A stretch of 7,586 nucleotides of DNA from a virus (lineage: Duplodnaviria > Heunggongvirae > Uroviricota > Caudoviricetes), in IMG/VR virus record IMGVR_UViG_2778261594_000011, positions 1-7,586 of that record, one strand, 5' to 3'. The notes under the pieces are model-generated. The model had not been told where the DNA came from and did not search any database. It was given only the letters and a program-made list of their open reading frames with translations. The position numbers and the translations under genes are program-made. Shown piece by piece: positions 1 through 7,586 of this stretch (the first letter of the stretch is position 1; each line of letters begins with the position of its first letter).

Positions 1-1158
1 ATGCCGAGAATAATCGAATTACGCCAGCAGAAAACCGCCATTAAAAATCAGATGCGCGACATGCTGGAGAACGCGGAAAAAGAAAACCGCAGCCTTAACG
101 ATGCTGAGGGCGCAAAATTTGACGAATTACGCGCTAAAGCTGAATCCCTCGATAAAGACATTTCCCGCCTTGAGGCCGTTGCAGACGAAGAGCGCAGCAA
201 GCCAGGTAAAAGCAGCCAGACCACTGACCCCGCCGAACTCCGCAACTACATTCTGACAGGTGAAACCCGCGCATTAAGTACAGGTGTCCCCGCTGATGGT
301 GGTTATACCGTTATCCCCGAACTGAACACCGAAATCATGCGAATGCTGGCGGACGAGTCCACGATGCGCCGCATCTGTACCGTGAAGAAAATCAGCAGCA
401 ACGAGTTTAAGCAGCTTGTTTCCGCTGGCGGTGCGACCGTTAACCACGGTGAAGAGGGTAAGGCACGCGAACAGACCAGCACCCCGCAGATTAACGAGGT
501 GAGCATCAAGCTGTATCCGGTATACGCCTATCCGCGCACCACACAGGAGATCGTTGATTTTTCCGATGTGGACATCCTTTCATGGCTGACGGGTGAGATT
601 GGCGACACCTTCACGGAAACCGAAGAAAGCGATCTGGTTGTGGGCGATGGTGACAAAAAAGCAAAAGGCTTTTTATCCGTACCCCGTGCAGAGAAGAACG
701 ACAAAGAGCGTGATTTTGGTACGTTGCAGGTAATTAAACCTTCCGAATCTCTGGCATGGACATCTGCGGACCCGCTGATCGACCTGAAATTTGCATTACG
801 TAAAAAATACCGCAAAAACGCGGTATGGGTGGTTAACTCCACGACGGCGGCAAAACTCCAGAAGGTGAAGAACGCGAACGGCGATTACATCTGGCGCGAC
901 CGTTTACAGGCGGGTGATCCTGATACGTTGCTGGGGCTTCCGGTGGAATATCTGGAATTTATGCCGGATAACGTTATCGCCCTGGGTGACTTCAAACGCG
1001 GTTATTACATCGTTGATCATGAAACGGGCGTGCGCACCAGACCGGACAACCTGACAGAGCCGGGCTTTATCAAAATTTTCACGCAGAAATATTTAGGCGG
1101 TGGCGTGGTGGATTCGAACGCGATCAAGATTCTGGAACTGCCGCAGGACGACGATTAA
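1..1158 (+). CDS. Major capsid protein, HK97 fold, with N-terminal coiled-coil delta (scaffold-like) domain
   Basis: 385-aa ORF. The N-terminal ~70 aa are charged and coiled-coil-like (ELRQQKTAIKNQMRDMLENAEKENRSLNDAEGAKFDELRAKAESLDKDISRLEA), typical of the HK97 gp5 delta domain; the rest has the HK97-family MCP pattern. A protease gene follows immediately. The ATG is at window position 1, so the true start and RBS cannot be checked. A strong terminator hairpin follows the stop. Confidence 0.85.
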   Translation: MPRIIELRQQKTAIKNQMRDMLENAEKENRSLNDAEGAKFDELRAKAESLDKDISRLEAVADEERSKPGKSSQTTDPAELRNYILTGETRALSTGVPADGGYTVIPELNTEIMRMLADESTMRRICTVKKISSNEFKQLVSAGGATVNHGEEGKAREQTSTPQINEVSIKLYPVYAYPRTTQEIVDFSDVDILSWLTGEIGDTFTETEESDLVVGDGDKKAKGFLSVPRAEKNDKERDFGTLQVIKPSESLAWTSADPLIDLKFALRKKYRKNAVWVVNSTTAAKLQKVKNANGDYIWRDRLQAGDPDTLLGLPVEYLEFMPDNVIALGDFKRGYYIVDHETGVRTRPDNLTEPGFIKIFTQKYLGGGVVDSNAIKILELPQDDD

Positions 1159-1164
1159 CAGCAC

Positions 1165-1197
1165 ACCGAAGGGGCTAAAAAGCCCCTTCTCTGTTTT
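1165..1197 (+). terminator. Rho-independent terminator-like hairpin after the capsid gene
   Basis: Stem GAAGGGGCT (1168-1176), loop AAAA, stem AGCCCCTTC (1181-1189), then the U-rich tract TCTGTTTT (1190-1197). It sits 7 nt after the capsid stop and before the protease RBS, so it is probably a partial terminator or attenuator. Confidence 0.6.
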
Positions 1198-1212
1198 ACA
1201 GGTGAAAAAATT

Positions 1213-1770
1213 ATGATGAGTATGGAAATCCGGTCATCGGAAATCACCACCAGCGGCAGCAACACGCTTACGGGCTACGTTGTTCGCTGGGATAACCTTT
1301 CAGAACTGTTATGGGGCGAATTTTACGAAAAATTCCAGCGAGGGGCGTTTACTGAATGGCTTGCGGCGGGTAATGACGTTCGCGGCCTGTATGAGCATGA
1401 CCACAGCATGTTACTGGGGCGTACCCGTTCCGGTACGCTGAAACTTGAGGAGGACGAAACAGGGTTACGCTTTGAACTGACCCCACCGGATACCAGCACA
1501 GGGCGGGATGTTATCGAACTGGTTAAACGTGGTGACATCTCGGGCATGAGTTTTGGCTTTCGTTCCCGTAAGGATGTATGGGATACAACAGTCGATCCAT
1601 GTGTGCGTACTGTACTGATAGCGGAACTGTACGAAATTACCGTCACATCCGTACCGGCTTACCCTGATTCCGGCGTGGAGCTGGCCCGACGTTCCCTGTA
1701 TGAACAGCACCCTGAAAAAATGCCTCGTGCGGATAATCGCCGCTGGTGGGCGGATTTAGCGGGGGTGTGA
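1213..1770 (+). CDS. Prohead maturation protease, HK97 family (peptidase S78)
   Basis: 185-aa ORF with the His motif LYEHDH and the Ser motif DISGMSFGF at the spacing expected for HK97 gp4-type proteases. RBS AGGTGA lies ~8 nt upstream. Three in-frame ATGs (1213, 1216, 1222) leave the exact start ambiguous. Confidence 0.85.
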   Translation: MMSMEIRSSEITTSGSNTLTGYVVRWDNLSELLWGEFYEKFQRGAFTEWLAAGNDVRGLYEHDHSMLLGRTRSGTLKLEEDETGLRFELTPPDTSTGRDVIELVKRGDISGMSFGFRSRKDVWDTTVDPCVRTVLIAELYEITVTSVPAYPDSGVELARRSLYEQHPEKMPRADNRRWWADLAGV

Positions 1771-1771
1771 T

Positions 1772-2983
1772 ATGTGGCCTTTCAGAAGAAAAAAAGAGCA
1801 TCGCAGCATAACGCTTGATGAATTTATGGCGCTGGCTGGCACGTCGAATACGGGGGCGGGTGAGTACGTATCATCGGGGACAGCAGAATCACTACCCGCC
1901 GTCATGAACGCCGTCGCGGTCATTTCTGAGGCGGTGGCTACTATGCCCTGTTACCTGTACCTGGTACGCAATGAGAAGGGGAAGGAGGCGCGGGAGTGGC
2001 TTGATTCTCATCCGGTCGATCACATTCTCAACGAGCGCCCGAACGCATGGCAGACCCCCTACCAGTTTAAGCGAATGATGATCCGCCACTGCCTGTTAAA
2101 CGGTAATGCTTATGCGGTGATTCAGTGGGGGCGTGATGGTTTTCCGGTGGCGCTGCATCCCTACCCGCCGCAGTCGGTGAACGTGGAGCAGACAGGGGAA
2201 CACAACTGGCGTTACTGCATCACTGACGCCTACACCGGAAACACCCGCAACTATCTCCCGTGGGAGGTTCTCCACCTTCGTTACTCCACGGATGACGGCT
2301 TTATGGGGCGCTCACCTGTAACCATCTGCCGCGAATCGCTGGGGCTTGGGCTGGCCCAACAACGCCACGGCGCGAGCGTGATGCGTGATGGCATGATGGC
2401 GGCAGGGGTTATCACGTCAGGCGAATGGCTGGACGGCGTGAAGGGCAAACAGGCATTAGCCGCACTGGAACGCTACAAAGGGGCCAGAAACGCCGGAAAA
2501 ACGCCCATTCTTGAAGGGGGTATGAGCTATCAGCAACTGGGCATGAGTAATCAGGATGCTGAATGGCTGGCCTCCCGTCGCTTCACCATTGAAGACATCG
2601 CCCGAATGTTCAACGTCTCGCCGATTTTTTTGCAGGAATACAGCAACAGCACCTACAGCAATTTCAGCGAGGCAAGCCGCGCATTTCTCACCATGACGAT
2701 GCGCCCGTGGCTGGCCAACTTTGAGCAGCAGATAAAAAACGCCTTACTGGTGGCCTCCCCTGTACCTGGTATCCGGTATCAGGTGGAGTTTGACAGCGCG
2801 GACCTGTTACGGGCCACACCTGGCGAACGCTTTGCCACCTATGAGCGCGGCATTAAATCCGGCGTTATGTGCCCGAACGAAGCCCGTGAACGTGAAGGAT
2901 TATCCCCGCGTGATGGTGGTGATGAGTTTAGCCAGGCCTGGAAACAGGAGGTCAAAATCAGCGAGGGAGACAAGCCGCAATGA
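1772..2983 (+). CDS. Portal protein, HK97 family
   Basis: 403-aa ORF with typical HK97-type portal sequence character (e.g. FTIEDIARMFNVSPIFL, acidic C-terminus). The start is 1 nt after the protease stop (GTGTGAtATG). Confidence 0.88.
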   Translation: MWPFRRKKEHRSITLDEFMALAGTSNTGAGEYVSSGTAESLPAVMNAVAVISEAVATMPCYLYLVRNEKGKEAREWLDSHPVDHILNERPNAWQTPYQFKRMMIRHCLLNGNAYAVIQWGRDGFPVALHPYPPQSVNVEQTGEHNWRYCITDAYTGNTRNYLPWEVLHLRYSTDDGFMGRSPVTICRESLGLGLAQQRHGASVMRDGMMAAGVITSGEWLDGVKGKQALAALERYKGARNAGKTPILEGGMSYQQLGMSNQDAEWLASRRFTIEDIARMFNVSPIFLQEYSNSTYSNFSEASRAFLTMTMRPWLANFEQQIKNALLVASPVPGIRYQVEFDSADLLRATPGERFATYERGIKSGVMCPNEAREREGLSPRDGGDEFSQAWKQEVKISEGDKPQ

Positions 2984-3318
2984 ATATAGGGCGACTTCGT
3001 GACAGGGTGACGGTTCAGACCCTGAAACAGTCCAGAGCCGTGACGGGGGAAATACTCCAGACGTGGGAGGACGGCCCCACACTCTGGGCGAGCGTGAACA
3101 TGGTGAGCAGCAAGGAGGCCATTTCATCGGGTGCAGAGCTGGCAATTGGTACCGTAAGGATCTGGATACGCTACCGGAAGGATATCAACGCCAGCAGCCG
3201 GATAAAGGTCAATACGGGGGCGATGGCGGGGCGCGTGCTGAATATCATCGGGCAGCCGCTGCCGGATGCAGCCATGACACGCCTTGAAATTCTTTGCCGT
3301 GAGGGCGCAGAAAAATGA
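2980..3318 (+). CDS. Head closure / head-tail joining protein (SPP1 gp16 / Phage_H_T_join-like)
   Basis: 112-aa ORF with the characteristic pattern RLRDRVTVQ ... W ... VNMVSSKEA ... VRIWIRYRKDI ... RI ... GR ... LEILCRE. The start overlaps the portal stop (ATGA). Confidence 0.75.
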   Translation: MNIGRLRDRVTVQTLKQSRAVTGEILQTWEDGPTLWASVNMVSSKEAISSGAELAIGTVRIWIRYRKDINASSRIKVNTGAMAGRVLNIIGQPLPDAAMTRLEILCREGAEK

Positions 3319-3608
3319 CAGAACTTATCACCCTGGAAGAAGTGAAACTCCATTGCCGCATCGATGGCGACGAGGAAGACCAGCTAATCAGCGGATACAT
3401 TGCCGCATCGCTTGAGGCGTGTCAGATACACATAGGCAGGCGCTTTGATGACGGGCTGGAGTTCACGCCAGCCATAAAGATTGGCTGCATGATGTTTATT
3501 GCTCACCTGTACGAGAATCGCCAGCTGGTCGCGGATAACACCAGAACACGCGTACCCCTGACGATAGGCGCACTCTGGACGGCTTACCGTGATGTGGGGG
3601 TGTACTGA
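3315..3608 (+). CDS. gp6-like head-tail connector protein
   Basis: 97-aa ORF with the N-terminal pattern LITLEEVKLHCRIDGDEEDQLISGYIAASLEACQ..GRRF typical of HK97 gp6-like connectors. ATGA overlap with the upstream gene. Confidence 0.75.
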   Translation: MTELITLEEVKLHCRIDGDEEDQLISGYIAASLEACQIHIGRRFDDGLEFTPAIKIGCMMFIAHLYENRQLVADNTRTRVPLTIGALWTAYRDVGVY

Positions 3609-4048
3609 TGCCGTGGCAACCGTTAAGGCGATGTACCGAACCAGGCTGCAACAGGCGCGTGAAGTCCGGCAAGTGTGAAGAGCACAGACGCAGCGCACGC
3701 CAGCAGCAGGACAGCCGGAGAGGCAGCAGCAGGGATCGAGGGTATACCAGGCAGTGGGAGAAATACCGCGCCATGTACCTTAATAAAAACCCGTTATGCG
3801 TGCGATGCCTTGAGAAGGGAATATATACGCCCGCCGTGGTGGTGGATCACATTATCCCCATCGATGGCGGTAATGATGTTCTGTTCTGGCCTGAATGGAA
3901 TCATCAGCCATTGTGTCAGGCGTGTCATAACCAGAAAACGAAATGGCTTGATCCGGCCACAAAAAACAAGCGTGCCGCTGGCGGATTCCGTGAGGAGGAA
4001 GAACGGGCAGCCAACCGCAATAACTGGATGTATGACGCTGATGAATGA
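3608..4048 (+). CDS. HNH endonuclease (terminase-associated, cos-packaging type)
   Basis: 146-aa ORF with a Cys-rich N-terminus (CTEPGCNRRVKSGKCEEH) and an HNH core (DHIIPIDGGNDV ... NHQPLCQACHNQKT). TGATG overlap with the upstream gene. It sits directly upstream of the terminase genes, as in HNH-dependent cos phages. Confidence 0.85.
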   Translation: MPWQPLRRCTEPGCNRRVKSGKCEEHRRSARQQQDSRRGSSRDRGYTRQWEKYRAMYLNKNPLCVRCLEKGIYTPAVVVDHIIPIDGGNDVLFWPEWNHQPLCQACHNQKTKWLDPATKNKRAAGGFREEEERAANRNNWMYDADE

Positions 4049-4214
4049 GCGGGAACAAAACCGTCTTATCCGTGGACTTATAAGGCAGCGTGACGCATGG
4101 AAGACACAGGAAACAGGGCATAAAAGCACAAAGGAAGCGCGAACAGGGCGCACCACAGCAACGCGATTAACTGACCGTGACCGCGAGGTGATGGAATGTT
4201 TCCGCAATCGCTGA

Positions 4215-4290
4215 TGATGCTGCCGGACGGGTGGGGGGGAGTTTTCAGGACAAACCCGCCCCCGTCCAGAACCGACCGCCTCCTCAAATT
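4215..4290. other. Candidate cos / terminase recognition region (GC-rich inverted repeat followed by an AT-rich tract)
   Basis: Inverted repeat GGACGGG (4226-4232) / CCCGTCC (4261-4267) flanking a G7 run and a C-rich run, followed by AT-rich sequence up to the terS start. It lies in the 289-bp HNH-terS intergenic gap, the position of cos in HK97-like genomes. Positional inference only. Confidence 0.25.
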
Positions 4291-4337
4291 TTTATGCACG
4301 GGAATTTTTTGAAAAATAATCTGGCGAAAAAATAAGC

Positions 4338-4694
4338 ATGGCAAGACCACCGAAAGCCCCCGCCTACCTGGATGATATCGCCGTGAAGCAGTGGCGGGAA
4401 AAATCGCGGCAGCTTGCGGAACGGGGAGACCTGACCCCCGCCGACTGGAGCAATCTGGAACTGTATTGTGTCAACTACTCCATTTACCGGAAAGCCGTTG
4501 CAGACCTTGCGGCGCGCGGGTTCAGCATTGTTAACAGTCAGGGCGGCGAGAGCAGAAACCCCGCATTAAGCGCAAAATCCGACGCTGAAAGAGTGATGAT
4601 AAAAATGGCCTCCTTGCTCGGTTTTGACCCGATAAGCCGCCGTAAAAATCCACCGGAAACAGAAGAAGAGGACGAGCTTGACCGCCTGGAATAA
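4338..4694 (+). CDS. terS: Terminase small subunit, P27 family
   Basis: 118-aa ORF with sequence character typical of P27-family TerS (KQWREKSRQLAERGDLTPADWSNLELYCVNYSIYRKA; acidic C-terminal tail EEEDELDRLE). It sits immediately upstream of, and overlaps, the large terminase gene. Confidence 0.8.
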   Translation: MARPPKAPAYLDDIAVKQWREKSRQLAERGDLTPADWSNLELYCVNYSIYRKAVADLAARGFSIVNSQGGESRNPALSAKSDAERVMIKMASLLGFDPISRRKNPPETEEEDELDRLE

Positions 4695-6339
4695 GTACGC
4701 AGAAGACGTAAAAACGGGCAAAATTCCGGCCTGTAAACGGCTGAAACAGGCCGTTAAACGGTACTTTTCGGACCTTGAAAGCCCCCTTTACACGTTCGAT
4801 CGTGAGGTTGTGGAGCGGTTTATTGCCTTTTCCAGGGTGTGCCCGCACGTAAAAGGGCCGATGCGTGGCAGACCCATTGAGCTGGAGCCGTGGCAGCAGT
4901 TCGCCTTTGCGTGCATCCTCGGCTTTAAGGTTAAGGCCACCGGACGGCGCAAATACACGAGCGCCTTTATCGAAGTGCCGCGCAAAAATGCGAAATCCAC
5001 GACCGCCGCGATTCTGGCTAACTGGTTTCTGATTATGGAGAACGGGCAGCAGGATATTTACACCGCAGCGGTGAGCCGTGACCAGGCGCGGATCGTTTTT
5101 GATGATGCGCGTCAGATGTGCCTTTTATCCCGACCGTTACGCAGGCGGGTGAATATTCAGGCCCACAAGGTGATGCACCCGAAAAGCAACAGCCTGTTAA
5201 AGCCGCTGGCAGCAAAAGCGGCAACCATCGAGGGAACAAACCCCAGCCTTTCCATCGTGGACGAATACCACCTACACCCCGATAACGGCGTTTATTCCGC
5301 GCTTGAGCTGGGGATGGGCGCACGTCCCGAAGGGCTGTTATTTGCCATTACCACATCGGGCAGTAACGTCGTTTCAACCTGTAAACAGCACTATGATTAT
5401 TGCTGCCAGATCCTGGACGGCGAAGAGGTCAACGATTCAATTTTTGTGCTGATTTACGAGCTGGACGACGAAAACGAGGTTGATGATCCGGCGATGTGGA
5501 TAAAGGCTAACCCTAACATCGATGTTTCCGTGGATCGTGAAAAACTGGCCTCAACCATCCAGAAAGCGCGGGGTATTCCGTCGCAATGGGTGGAGATGAT
5601 GACAAAGCGATTTAATATCTGGTGCCAGGGGGCTACCCCGTGGATGGGTAACGGCGCATGGGCTGAGTGTGCCGGAACGTTCACGGAGGAAGATTTACAC
5701 GGGCAGGAGTGTTACGCGGGGCTGGACTTATCATCAACCAGCGATATTTCCAGCGTGTGCTATGCCTTTCCGGTCGGTAAAAATATCATGCTGGTTTCCC
5801 GTCATTATCTGCCGGAGTTCCAGCTACAGAACCCCGCCAATAAAAACCGCGCTGTCTATCGCCAGTGGGCTAAAGCGGGCTGGATACGCACAACGCCAGG
5901 TGACTGCATTGATTACGACCGGATCAGAGATGACATCATGCAGGATGCGGAGAAATTTAATATCAGGCTGGTGGGCTTTGATACGTGGAACGCCACGCAT
6001 CTCAGGACGCAATTACAGGGGGCTGGTTTTGAGGTGGAGCCGTTCCCGCAAACCTACCTCAGATTCAGTCCGGCGGCGAAATCGTTCGAAGTTTTTGTTA
6101 ACCGCAGGGTGATTGTGCATCGTGGCGATCCGGTGTTGTCCTGGTCGATGAGTAACGTCGTGATGCAGAGTGACGCGAACGCCAATATCAAGCCGAACAA
6201 GAAAAAATCACCGAACAAGATAGACCCGAGCGTAGCGGCGCTGATGGCGTTTGGTACATTCCAGGCAGAGCATGAGGATTTTGCTTTTGATATAAGCGAC
6301 AGCCACCGCCAGAAACTGGAAGAATTTAGCGGGGTGTAA
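4678..6339 (+). CDS. terL: Terminase large subunit (ATPase + nuclease), Terminase_1 / HK97 gp2-like
   Basis: 553-aa ORF. Walker A-like IEVPRKNAKSTTAA and Walker B-like LSIVDEYH in the N-terminal ATPase domain, with an acidic-residue-rich C-terminal nuclease region. The ORF as drawn starts at a TTG (4678-4680), 17 nt inside the terS 3' end; the first in-frame ATG is ~61 codons downstream, after the conserved N-terminal W..Y..DV..GKI..C motif, so the non-ATG start is plausible but unproven. Confidence 0.88.
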   Translation: MTAWNKYAEDVKTGKIPACKRLKQAVKRYFSDLESPLYTFDREVVERFIAFSRVCPHVKGPMRGRPIELEPWQQFAFACILGFKVKATGRRKYTSAFIEVPRKNAKSTTAAILANWFLIMENGQQDIYTAAVSRDQARIVFDDARQMCLLSRPLRRRVNIQAHKVMHPKSNSLLKPLAAKAATIEGTNPSLSIVDEYHLHPDNGVYSALELGMGARPEGLLFAITTSGSNVVSTCKQHYDYCCQILDGEEVNDSIFVLIYELDDENEVDDPAMWIKANPNIDVSVDREKLASTIQKARGIPSQWVEMMTKRFNIWCQGATPWMGNGAWAECAGTFTEEDLHGQECYAGLDLSSTSDISSVCYAFPVGKNIMLVSRHYLPEFQLQNPANKNRAVYRQWAKAGWIRTTPGDCIDYDRIRDDIMQDAEKFNIRLVGFDTWNATHLRTQLQGAGFEVEPFPQTYLRFSPAAKSFEVFVNRRVIVHRGDPVLSWSMSNVVMQSDANANIKPNKKKSPNKIDPSVAALMAFGTFQAEHEDFAFDISDSHRQKLEEFSGV

Positions 6340-6352
6340 TGAGGTCAGCAGC

Positions 6353-6634
6353 ATGACAGAAGCCGAAATACTGCGATTAATCCGCCGCGTCTCTGGAATC
6401 AGCCAGCAGGCTGACGAACAGACCACGCAGCCGGACAGCGTGACAGCCGAAAATTATGCGCGTGTTGTTGCTGAGGTGATGCGCCGTGATGGTATCCAGC
6501 TTAATGATGCGGATATGCGCGACATACGGATCCGCGTTCTGGAAATGCTGGCCTACAATCGCCGCGTTGAACTGTATCGGGAGAAGGAGAAAATCACGTA
6601 TCACTGGAAGAAGCCGGAGCGGTTACGGCGGTAA
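6353..6634 (+). CDS. Hypothetical small protein (93 aa), last gene of the packaging operon
   Basis: ATG with a GAGGT RBS ~8 nt upstream, 13 nt after the terL stop. The protein is charged and Arg-rich with no motif I recognise. Coding status rests on ORF length, the RBS and operon context only. Confidence 0.5.
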   Translation: MTEAEILRLIRRVSGISQQADEQTTQPDSVTAENYARVVAEVMRRDGIQLNDADMRDIRIRVLEMLAYNRRVELYREKEKITYHWKKPERLRR

Positions 6635-6678
6635 CTTGTTGATTAAAAGGCGGCTCAATTCTGAGCTGGGTAGCTGAC

Positions 6679-6719
6679 GGCGGTAACTGTTTGATATTCC
6701 CGATAACGCAAAATTGCGC
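6679..6719. repeat. ~41-bp direct repeat, copy 1 (GGCGGTAACTGTTTGATATTCCCGATAACGCAAAATTGCGC)
   Basis: Direct sequence comparison with copy 2 at 6861-6904, which differs at a few positions. It contains the 17-bp motif gGTAACTnnTTGATATT and a short terminal palindrome (CGCAA-AA-TTGCG). Confidence 0.8.
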
Positions 6720-6774
6720 TGGCTACATCCCTCACATCTGAGGACTGTTAACCAGCAGGCCGGAATATATTCAC

Positions 6775-6797
6775 AAACTACGAAATTTTCGTAGTTT
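6775..6797. repeat. 23-bp near-perfect palindrome AAACTACGAAA-t-TTTCGTAGTTT (operator-like)
   Basis: 11-bp arms that are exact reverse complements around a single central base; located between the two ~41-bp direct repeats. Confidence 0.85.
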
Positions 6798-6860
6798 AAT
6801 TACTCGCCAGTTTATCGTTAACTAGTTGATATTTTCGGAAACCTCAATTTGAGGAAGTCG

Positions 6861-6904
6861 GCGCGGTAACTGTTTTATATTCCCGATAGCGCAAAAATGC
6901 GCGG
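6861..6904. repeat. ~41-bp direct repeat, copy 2 (GCGCGGTAACTGTTTTATATTCCCGATAGCGCAAAAATGCGCGG)
   Basis: Imperfect direct copy of 6679-6719. It is preceded by the palindrome CCTCAA-t-TTGAGG (6842-6854), which mirrors GCTCA-attc-TGAGC (6650-6663) ahead of copy 1. Related partial motifs occur at 6629-6645 (GGTAACTTGTTGATTAA) and 6820-6836 (GTTAACTAGTTGATATT). Confidence 0.8.
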
Positions 6905-6930
6905 TCGGGCAGAATGAGCACCACCTCAAT

Positions 6931-6966
6931 CGTGACGGAGAGTGACAACCAGTGACACACCGTGAC
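6931..6966. repeat. Four (C/A)GTGAC motifs at exact 10-bp spacing (helically phased iteron-like array)
   Basis: GTGAC at 6932, 6942, 6952 and 6962, followed by the palindrome ACGGTT-t-AACCGT (6973-6985). The reverse-complement motif GTCACT recurs at 7064-7069 and 7361-7366. Confidence 0.8.
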
Positions 6967-7019
6967 AAAAAGACGGTTTAACCGTTCATTAAAAATCGAC
7001 GTGATTTTGTGCTTTCCGG

Positions 7020-7038
7020 ATGACGTGGCCAACGTCAT
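7020..7038. repeat. Palindrome ATGACGT-ggcca-ACGTCAT
   Basis: 7-bp perfect inverted arms with a 5-bp spacer, followed by a T6 run; a related GACGTGAT lies at 7001-7010. Confidence 0.75.
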
Positions 7039-7354
7039 TTTTTAGCGAAAAATTCTGATTAAGGTCACTGGCTGAATGGTCATAATTACCACGCAGACCA
7101 TCGAGGCAACCATAGCGATCATCGTTACGGTTGGAGCTTTTCCGCCATTGGTGGAAAAGGTGCACATCTGGATCATCATTACGGTGATCAAGGGTATGTA
7201 AAACCCACCTGGCTGATTAAAGGTTAACCGGAAAAAAAATCCGGTAGCCCCGTTATGGGGATCCCCATATCGACAGCAACGCCTCCTTAAAATTACCCGC
7301 CTTTATATTTCTTGTGCCTATTTGTTCCACGTTGTTTCATACAGTGCACCGAAC

Positions 7355-7378
7355 GGTGTAGTCACTGGTGTAGTCATT
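7355..7378. repeat. Tandem 12-bp direct repeat GGTGTAGTCACT / GGTGTAGTCATT
   Basis: Two adjacent 12-mers differing at one base, ~75 bp from the putative element/host junction. Confidence 0.8.
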
Positions 7379-7421
7379 TTGCGAATTTTGGCACTTTCTC
7401 AGTGAAAATTGCTTAATTAAA

Positions 7422-7586
7422 TCAATGCACTATGCGGGATAAGTTATATATAACAGCAATAAATAATGCGAGAATAAACGGCACGATGATCTCGGCGGCA
7501 AAACGGATACCGCAGAGAATAATGACCAGCATTCCCAACATAATGACGATTTTTAGGCCATTGAGCGTGATGATCGGCTTTGCCAT
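7422..7586 (-). pseudogene. tqsA: 5' fragment of a tqsA (ydgG)-like AI-2 exporter gene, truncated after ~45 native codons
   Basis: The minus-strand ATG at 7584-7586 opens an ORF translating [45 protein letters not shown], which matches the TqsA N-terminus as I recall it, then continues IYNLSRIVH and stops at 7422-7424 (54 codons against ~344 aa for intact TqsA). The gene start is at the window edge, so the promoter and upstream region are not visible. Confidence 0.55.

Follow-up and report, generated by a model that had tools for sequence, protein, structure and literature searches.

The stretch of DNA analysed here (the window, 7,586 nucleotides) ends in a minus-strand reading frame that begins like the AI-2 exporter TqsA of E. 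coli and then departs from it. This raises the questions of whether a mobile element is integrated in the tqsA coding sequence, what kind of element it is, and whether the gene is disrupted or provided with a new 5' end.

Junctions between the element and tqsA

A megablast search with 7200-7586 as the query gave a tqsA match in 5,423 of 5,426 complete E. coli genomes. In strains with an uninterrupted gene the match covered exactly 7450-7586 at 100% identity (E = 3e-64) and was annotated 'AI-2 transporter TqsA'. A base-by-base comparison with a K-12-type tqsA (L002; sequences compared with the window carry L numbers) showed 137 identical nucleotides from the ATG without a break, 7450 being the last identical base. 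The native gene goes on with GCT GTT ATT CTT AAC CCG, while the window reads GCT GTT ATA TAT AAC TTA TCC. At the protein level identity extended from M1 to I46 and residue 47 was changed from L to Y; the match at N48 (TAAC) was at chance level, and the sequences diverged thereafter. The initial annotation had recognised about 45 TqsA residues at the start of this frame, followed by the divergent 'IYNLSRIVH' and a stop at codon 55, and had placed the breakpoint near 7440-7455. All of these readings were borne out, and the identity to E. coli tqsA did not extend to the left of 7450. The features at this end of the window are as follows.

7450-7586, minus strand: native 5' fragment of tqsA (nt 1-137, residues 1-46), 100% identical to K-12-type tqsA, start codon at the window end
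7422-7586, minus strand: chimeric truncated reading frame of 54 aa, TqsA 1-46 plus the eight element-encoded residues YNLSRIVH; read from the ORF, and annotated by PGAP in relatives as a partial 'pheromone autoinducer 2 transporter' pseudogene
7450-7458, no strand assigned: 9-bp core or identity block, ATAACAGCA on the plus strand and TGCTGTTAT in the tqsA sense, shared by the two junctions and the empty site

The integrase gene, alpA and the far junction (attL) lie outside the window and were assigned through the public contig ABUDUE010000005.1 (GCA_041351855.1; L009). This contig was reached by looking up the exact capsid protein of the window, and its positions 10001-17586 are base-for-base identical to the window. 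The gene order in L009 is pntB, tqsA 3' fragment, core, doubled motif, int, alpA, small genes, replication gene, SSB and PerC, and onward the capsid through TerL genes, orf93, doubled motif, core, tqsA 5' fragment, mdtJ and mdtI. From one core to the other the element is 15,234 bp long, and the following features of L009 define its ends.

1318-2223 of L009, minus strand: tqsA 3' fragment, 906 nt, 301 codons; 300 of 301 residues equal to K-12 residues 44-344
2216-2224 and 17450-17458 of L009: the two cores, a 9-bp repeat
2400-3629 of L009: int, P4-type tyrosine integrase of 409 aa with Arm-DNA-bind_3 and Phage_integrase domains

The remaining codons of tqsA, which the initial annotation had estimated at about 300, were located at the far junction of L009 as a fragment of 301 codons with an open reading frame. 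The direct repeat expected at both element ends was found as the 9-bp core TGCTGTTAT, which corresponds to tqsA nt 129-137. The two junctions and the empty site align in the tqsA sense as follows.

attL: ctaattgataaaa TGCTGTTAT tcttaacccgctgg
attR: gcattatttat TGCTGTTAT atataacttatcccgc
attB (empty site): gcattatttat TGCTGTTAT tcttaacccgctgg

As the identity block is 9 bp long, the crossover lies somewhere within 7450-7458, at codons 43-46, in agreement with the proposed integration of a mobile element near codon 45. The short imperfect att-core overlap suggested earlier was resolved into a perfect 9-bp core plus the bases GTTA/TAAC three bases off. The TAAC on the element side of attR, three bases past the core, is the same as in attB.

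The empty site was compared with a 278-bp native-site probe. Among 5,423 genomes, tqsA was contiguous across the site in 5,169 and interrupted in 254. The attR junction (121-bp probe, 7390-7510) was contiguous in 233 complete genomes and the attL junction (131-bp probe) in 247 genomes. The same nucleotide position is occupied in 233-254 of about 5,423 complete E. coli genomes (about 4.5%), and the carriers include O43, O22:H8, O145:H28, O157:H7, O157:H16, O55:H7 and O26:H11 strains. These counts also bear on the suspicion that an error of sequencing or assembly, or a chimeric contig, produced the truncation. With its end exactly at the tqsA ATG, the window shows no upstream context; otherwise such an artefact is a general possibility only. 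Since the identical attR junction was present in 233 independently assembled complete genomes and the reciprocal attL junction in 247, and since both share the 9-bp core expected of site-specific recombination, an artefact was refuted, and its probability is practically nil.

The occupants of the tqsA site ranged from 11.5 to 15.6 kb and carried at least four cargo sets in diverse serotypes with one shared junction. [quoted passage not shown] In strain 20.1 the TerL gene was frameshifted, which indicates that some copies are decaying. Strain E105 carried an 11.5-kb PICI without the full packaging module. Several features of integration by a site-specific tyrosine recombinase were present: the core at attL, at attR and at the K-12 attB, an int gene adjoining one junction (its start is 175 bp from the attL core), and a reused position. 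The tqsA position is a standard, repeatedly used attachment site for one clade of PICI integrases. A scan for the integrase in one-genome-per-species contigs, meant to cover site usage beyond E. coli, gave a single locus, in Shigella flexneri, which was of the roxA-phoQ type.

Gene content and identity of the element

Up to about 7449 the window consists of the element, and from 7450 to its end it consists of host tqsA. The packaging genes and the gene following them were assigned as listed, all on the plus strand.

1-1158, plus strand: major capsid protein, HK97-type, first gene of the packaging module (Pfam Phage_capsid, E = 1.6e-61; PHROG 10, major head protein)
1213-1770, plus strand: prohead serine protease (Pfam Peptidase_S78, E = 2.7e-47)
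1772-2983, plus strand: portal protein (Pfam Phage_portal, E = 2e-90)
2980-3318, plus strand: head completion or head closure protein (Pfam Phage_HCP, E = 3.3e-20)
3315-3608, plus strand: gp6-like head-tail connector (Pfam Phage_connect_1, E = 3.2e-11)
3608-4048, plus strand: HNH endonuclease, packaging accessory (Pfam HNH, E = 1.6e-8)
4338-4694, plus strand: small terminase, P27 family (Pfam Terminase_4, E = 1.3e-23)
4678-6339, plus strand: large terminase (Pfam TerL_ATPase plus TerL_nuclease; PHROG 9)
6353-6634, plus strand: orf93, 93 aa, function unassigned in PHROG, last gene before the right end (PHROG 1561, E = 1.5e-55)

Proteobacterial cf-PICIs carry the morphogenesis genes first and then hnh-terS-terL (10.1101/2022.09.08.507074; definition restated in 10.1101/2025.02.11.637232). 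All eight packaging genes were present in order within 1-6339 of the window with strong Pfam hits. Between TerL and attR the window held only orf93 and non-coding DNA, and no tail or lysis genes were found there. orf93 also occurs in non-capsid-forming PICIs inserted at the tqsA site (homologues in L005 and L006). Downstream of orf93 follow about 800 bp without convincing genes. No non-coding RNA was found in the window (0 Rfam matches at E <= 1), and a scan of 6300-7586 for promoters and terminators gave nothing above the shuffled expectation. Hairpins are visible at 7228-7266 and were missing from the output of that scan.

Outside the window, L009 and L001 contained the integrase, alpA and replication modules, with Phage_AlpA, an AAA_25 (RepA-like) helicase, SSB and PerC. 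The AAA_25 domain is that of the L009 replication gene, whose counterpart in RM10042 is annotated as a RepA-family helicase. The complete assemblies of RM10042 and strain 10 showed the same arrangement in elements of 15,532 and 15,601 bp that are 96-97% identical to the window, and the elements of the relatives measured 15,059-15,601 bp from core to core. Neither lysis genes nor a complete tail module were found in the annotated elements of RM10042, strain 10 and L009. The att-bounded length of the L009 element falls in the cf-PICI size range of about 10-18 kb. Every cf-PICI criterion that can be applied to a sequence was seen to hold for this putative member of the family.

EcCIEDL933 of E. 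coli O157:H7 is the prototype cf-PICI and has been shown experimentally to be a satellite (Alqurainy et al., 10.1101/2022.09.08.507074). It was compared here through the element of O157:H7 strain F8952 (L003), which fits its published description. The capsid, protease, portal, two connector, HNH, TerS and TerL genes stand in the same order, and the nucleotide identity was 93.6% over 94% of the window. The left half, int-alpA-Icd-rep-SSB-PerC, is also alike, as are the length of about 15.4 kb and the lack of tail and lysis genes. The integrases are 90% identical, and the arm motifs and the layout of a repeated 14-mer are the same. Unlike the element in tqsA, the O157:H7 element sits in the roxA-phoQ intergenic region, has the core GGACATATTT and the arm half-site variant GGTGTAGTTAA, and carries a replication gene of the DUF927 type instead of the RepA-like helicase. 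It also has another 22-bp core-proximal segment, so that the homology to the window ends at 7427.

The complete HK97-like head and terminase module in the window could also come from an ordinary temperate prophage, intact or reduced by deletion to a remnant, and Bobay et al. counted the occupants of tqsA as prophages (PMC3603311). The whole 15.2-kb element, however, lacks tail, lysis and lambdoid immunity genes, and its layout of int, alpA, replication gene (RepA-like helicase or primase), SSB and PerC is that of Gram-negative PICIs. The O157:H7 element to which it is 94% identical matches an experimentally shown satellite, and hundreds of genomes share the same size and layout, which would not be so with random deletion remnants. 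No phage genome shared more than 26% of the window; as the best phage-database record covered at most this fraction, identity with a known phage was rejected. A prophage origin is highly unlikely on this evidence, and the segment 7380-7586 is very probably attR, the right junction of a cf-PICI phage satellite integrated in tqsA.

As a cf-PICI, the element would insert by means of its P4-type tyrosine integrase, encoded about 15 kb away, which is predicted to recombine attP with TGCTGTTAT at tqsA codons 43-46. Arm-type sites, a doubled GGTGTAGTCA motif in each arm, would be bound by the N-terminal arm-binding domain of the integrase and probably help insertion. The gene is split, and its 5' piece makes at most a 54-aa peptide. 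A helper phage would induce the satellite through AlpA, and the satellite would make its own small capsids and hijack helper tails. This dependence on a helper is suggested by family membership and by the 94% nucleotide identity to the EcCIEDL933-like element.

Consequences for tqsA

The initial annotation had left two alternatives for the gene, a plain disruption or a replacement of the 5' end by the element at the other junction. The first of these is favoured: the element supplies no replacement 5' end, and tqsA is disrupted. At attL the stop codons TGA TAA stand in frame directly before tqsA codon 44 in five of five genomes with four cargo sets, which means that no element-encoded N-terminus is fused to the gene. 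The 3' piece of 301 codons lacks a start codon and lies behind the two in-frame stops, so the element restores nothing.

Retention of TqsA function, either through an element-supplied 5' end or through an internal restart at V52 or M55, was weighed against this. According to a general statement of Mageeney et al. (PMC7192596), many integrative elements that enter coding sequences bring a replacement fragment in attP, and PGAP annotates a 60-aa 'hypothetical protein' at attL that lies in the tqsA frame. This reading frame ends at TGA TAA and is cut off by these stops from codon 44 in all five genomes, and it overlaps the int start and the arm motifs. A consensus scan found no promoter-like site facing the tqsA 3' fragment; the only site faces int, and its count was at chance level. 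A protein begun internally at V52 or M55 would be without H1 and the greater part of H2, the first two helices of the TqsA structure. In the domain test of the TIGER program, tqsA islands of 11, 15 and 16 kb in E. coli were scored 'disrupted without restoration' (PMC7192596). The replacement of the 5' end was rejected on account of the in-frame stops, and retained function by any of these routes deserves very little credence.

In the cryo-EM structure of TqsA (PDB 7NB6; PMC9475539), helix H1 (residues 7-29) forms the main pentamer contact at the cytoplasmic face, and helix H2 comprises residues 31-57. The AI-2E_transport domain (Pfam, residues 14-328) is cut at residue 46, and the insertion separates the remainder of TqsA from H1 and half of H2. 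TqsA is therefore expected to be inactive while the satellite is resident, and the tqsA of carriers would be a null allele, judging from the structure. This agrees with the TIGER score. The carriers, O157:H7, O26:H11, O145:H28 and O55:H7 strains among them, are accordingly predicted tqsA nulls. The phenotype of a tqsA deletion is documented, and comparisons of quorum sensing or biofilm formation between strains could therefore be affected unnoticed by carriage of the satellite. The partial 'pheromone autoinducer 2 transporter' pseudogenes annotated by PGAP in about 4.5% of the genomes are best read as halves of a tqsA split by a satellite and not as decayed genes, and the 15-kb block between the halves would be labelled a cf-PICI and not a defective prophage. 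In-silico excision at the core gave an intact tqsA of 344 codons with 0-1 amino acid differences from K-12 (computed).

Classical gene-disrupting integrations are those of the Stx/933W-type prophage in mlrA (yehV) and of phi10403S in Listeria comK; in the case of comK, excision is reversible and has a demonstrated physiological role. As in these cases, the insertion is made by a site-specific tyrosine integrase within conserved coding sequence, and the gene is whole again after in-silico excision. The occupants of mlrA and comK are full prophages, while the occupant of tqsA is a satellite.

The insertion could also be seen as an 'active lysogeny' switch, in which reversible excision and re-integration toggle AI-2 export to the benefit of the host or the element, and tqsA would then be more than a landing site that is tolerated. 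One integrase clade reuses a single internal position of tqsA in about 4.5% of genomes with several cargo types, both halves of the gene keep open frames, and excision in silico restores TqsA. PMC7192596 lists tqsA as a candidate for regulated gene integrity (RGI), and two marks of RGI were found here: the AI-2E_transport domain is cut and unrestored, and at least four cargo architectures occur at the same position in diverse serotypes. In tqsA deletion mutants, intracellular AI-2, motility and biofilm formation are changed (Herzberg 2006, cited after PMC9475539). PICI excision, however, is normally tied to helper-phage induction through AlpA (10.1101/2022.09.08.507074), i.e. to a cell about to lyse, and the restoration of tqsA in a dying cell has no obvious beneficiary. 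Open reading frames are expected anyway in recent insertions. Moreover, integrases 90% identical to that of the tqsA element use the intergenic roxA-phoQ site, where there is no gene to regulate, which suggests that the choice of site drifts regardless of the function of the target. A switch of this kind is therefore considered unlikely. It is equally unlikely that satellites of this integrase clade settled on an internal tqsA site on account of a benefit from silenced AI-2 export (more intracellular AI-2, biofilm and motility) to the carrier or to their encounter rate with helper phages, and that excision in a subpopulation restores export as in a genuine switch.

Attachment-site architecture and relation to known systems

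Three further features of the window lie on the element side of the core.

7428-7449, plus strand: core-proximal, site-specific att segment; the homology to the EcCIEDL933-like O157:H7 element, which uses another attB, ends at 7427
7355-7376, plus strand: doubled motif GGTGTAGTCAct-GGTGTAGTCA with a 12-bp period in the attR (P) arm, candidate arm-type sites, from over-representation and conservation
7322-7335, plus strand: 14-mer TTGTTCCACGTTGT (TTGTTYCACGTTGT), candidate protein-binding site, one of 4-5 copies, all of them within the element

The doubled motif in the window lies 73 bp from the core. A second pair, co-oriented with the first, was present at 2353-2374 of L009, on the int side of the core at a distance of 128 bp. 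Within 21-40 kb there were no half-sites other than these 4, where 0.05-0.16 were expected, and the motif was kept in the O157 element with a TTAA variant. The integrase has an N-terminal Arm-DNA-bind_3 domain, and the doubled motif is restricted to the two arms. From its position, its over-representation and the analogy to other systems, the doubled motif is a candidate for the arm-type integrase sites.

The nearest analogy is provided by the helper-embedded PICIs (HE-PICIs), whose attP contains a doubled motif 81 +/- 2 and 132 +/- 2 bp from the attP centre; its binding by the integrase's arm domains or by AlpA was suggested by the authors (Mageeney et al. 2023, PMC10111431). In both systems the motif has a 12-bp period, is present twice and is co-oriented, and the integrases are P4-like PICI integrases. 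The distances found here, taken between the centre of the core and the closer edge of the motif, were 78 and 133 bp, compared with about 81 and about 132 bp from the attP centre in the HE-PICIs. In contrast to GGTGTAGTCA here, the motif of the HE-PICIs is TGTATTGC, and it is stated not to have been found in other PICIs (PMC10111431). The HE-PICIs target prophage late genes, while a host gene is the target here.

Both parts of the finding had been described before. Bobay et al. 2013 (PMC3603311) name tqsA among the E. coli core genes disrupted by prophage integration, and Mageeney et al. 2020 (PMC7192596) name it among the target genes in which an integrative element breaks a domain and leaves it unrestored. 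The initial annotation had called integration into the 5' end of a coding sequence less common than tRNA or 3'-end integration, which agrees with the latter paper. The TIGER islands Eco282.16.tqsA, Eco33.11.tqsA and Eco557.15.tqsA listed in it come from the same species and the same target gene, and they and the 'prophages' of Bobay et al. likewise show disruption of the UPF0118/AI-2E domain without restoration. With 16, 11 and 15 kb these islands fit the elements of 15.2-15.6 kb and 11.5 kb found here, the likeness being one of size. Unlike in the present analysis, the accessible portions of the 2020 and 2013 papers do not name the occupants PICIs or cf-PICIs and do not describe the core and the arm sites. 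The cf-PICIs were described in 2022-23; those of E. coli integrate at six attB sites, of which four also serve classical PICIs, according to 10.1101/2022.09.08.507074. Among the papers searched, none links PICIs to tqsA or ydgG by name. As the link between PICIs and tqsA follows directly from published data, it was rated as already known, both the cf-PICI family and tqsA as a target having been described, and the current understanding of satellites and their integration is unchanged. The doubled arm motif with its HE-PICI-like geometry, the element-wide 14-mer and the integrase pair are small leads and not discoveries.

The integrase pair consists of the tqsA type and the roxA-phoQ type, which have 90% identity and a core of their own each. 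Outside the arm-binding domain they are separated by only about ten site-correlated substitutions, and the two types differ by the exchange of a 22-bp segment of attP. The pair could reveal how core specificity is re-programmed.

The 14-mer recurs in each of the att arms and in the spacer between int and alpA; in RM10042 and the O157 element it is also found upstream of the capsid gene. L009 contained 4 copies (0.01 expected) and L001 contained 5 (0.08 expected).

A capsid protein identical to that of the window was also encoded on elements with a 413-aa integrase adjoining tRNA-Pro(GGG). These elements are homologous to the window as far as 6643-6666 or 7272, which delimits an att-specific right-end module of at least 7273-7449. 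The exchange of the packaging module is thus independent of the integration module.

Integrase and core specificity

The integrases of the tqsA-type and roxA-phoQ-type satellites are a natural pair with switched specificity. The tqsA-type enzyme (L001, the RM10042 element, 4903-6132) and the roxA-phoQ-type enzyme (L003, the O157:H7 element, 3206-4435) showed 90% identity, while the core of the tqsA-type was TGCTGTTAT (tqsA sense) and that of the roxA-phoQ-type GGACATATTT (element plus strand). About 27 integrase substitutions correlated with the site: the arm-binding residues 1-60 hold 17 of them, and about ten lie in the rest of the protein. The 22 bp adjacent to the core (window 7428-7449) were also exchanged between the two types of element.

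A relative of the integrase with 84% nucleotide identity was present in E. coli ETEC4077, where it adjoins a gene for a 'magnesium chelatase domain-containing protein' (yifB/comM-like). The gene yifB is also on the TIGER list of disrupted targets (Mageeney et al. 2020). The integrase clade of the tqsA-type satellites may be the source of several reported gene-disrupting islands of E. coli.

Motifs on the att arms

Two motifs and one annotated ORF were located on the att arms; L009 is the public contig that contains the window and the opposite end of the element:

Window 7355-7376, +, doubled motif GGTGTAGTCAct-GGTGTAGTCA with a 12-bp period, 73 bp from the core
L009 2353-2374, partner copy of the doubled motif on the other att arm, 128 bp from the core
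Window 7322-7335, +, 14-mer TTGTTYCACGTTGT on the att arm
L009 2320-2333, +, 14-mer on the att arm
L009 3678-3691 (-) and 3698-3711 (-), two inverted copies of the 14-mer in the int-alpA spacer
L001 12568-12581, +, additional copy of the 14-mer
L001 4733-4915 (L009 about 2230-2412), -, 60-aa 'hypothetical protein' (PGAP) spanning the attL arm

The doubled-motif pairs of the two arms had the same orientation. Their distances from the core are close to the published geometry of the doubled motif in helper-embedded PICIs (81/132 bp; PMC10111431), but the half-site sequence is unlike that of the helper-embedded PICI motif, which was stated not to occur in other PICIs (PMC10111431).

Four to five copies of the 14-mer were present within an element, compared with 0.01-0.08 expected, and none in the flanks. 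In the RM10042 and O157 elements, a further copy precedes the capsid gene by about 220 bp. The 14-mer may serve as a site for a regulator of the satellite, AlpA or another. The 60-aa ORF, probably a spurious annotation, overlaps both arm motifs and the region of the int start codon; it lies in the tqsA frame and stops at TGA TAA.

Features near the right end

The following features precede the right junction:

Window 6612-6902, +, array of four to five imperfect direct repeats just 3' of orf93, the last gene before the right end
Window 7063-7227, +, histidine-rich open frame GHWLNGHNYHADHRGNHSDHRYGWSFSAIGGKGAHLDHHYGDQGYVKPTWLIKG* without an ATG, GTG or TTG start
Window 7228-7266, two hairpins, CCGG-A8-TCCGG and CCCC...GGGGATCCCC, after the histidine-rich frame

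The array consists of GCGGTAACTGTTTGATATTCCCGATAACGCAAAATTGCGC units and shorter CGGCGGTAACTnGTTGAT forms, and each of the long copies terminates in the small palindrome GCGCAAAATTGCGC. Portions of it were also found in non-capsid-forming PICIs with the same right end. An ATG at window 7076 opens a 41-aa ORF in a frame other than the histidine-rich one, and in strain E105 a 52-aa gene is annotated by PGAP at the position equivalent to window 7063-7227. This region may represent a frameshifted or variable small gene.

Packaging module and possible cos site

The elements of L008 and L010-L013 (10001-16640), compared with window 1-6643, encode an identical capsid protein and have a packaging module with 95-99% nucleotide identity. 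Their integrase (413 aa) is different, and their insertion site adjoins tRNA-Pro(GGG), between a sulfatase-domain gene and a response-regulator gene. The capsid/terminase and int/att modules therefore recombine freely.

Record LR881103.1 (16.5 kb; 'Escherichia phage vB_KppS-Ant'), deposited as an induced prophage, matched the window only in terS-terL (4326-6306, 77.5% identity); judging by its size, it is probably a cf-PICI deposited as a phage. The record begins 9 bp ahead of a terS homologue, a start that also suggests a cos site for this family in the HNH-terS spacer (window 4049-4337), immediately ahead of terS.
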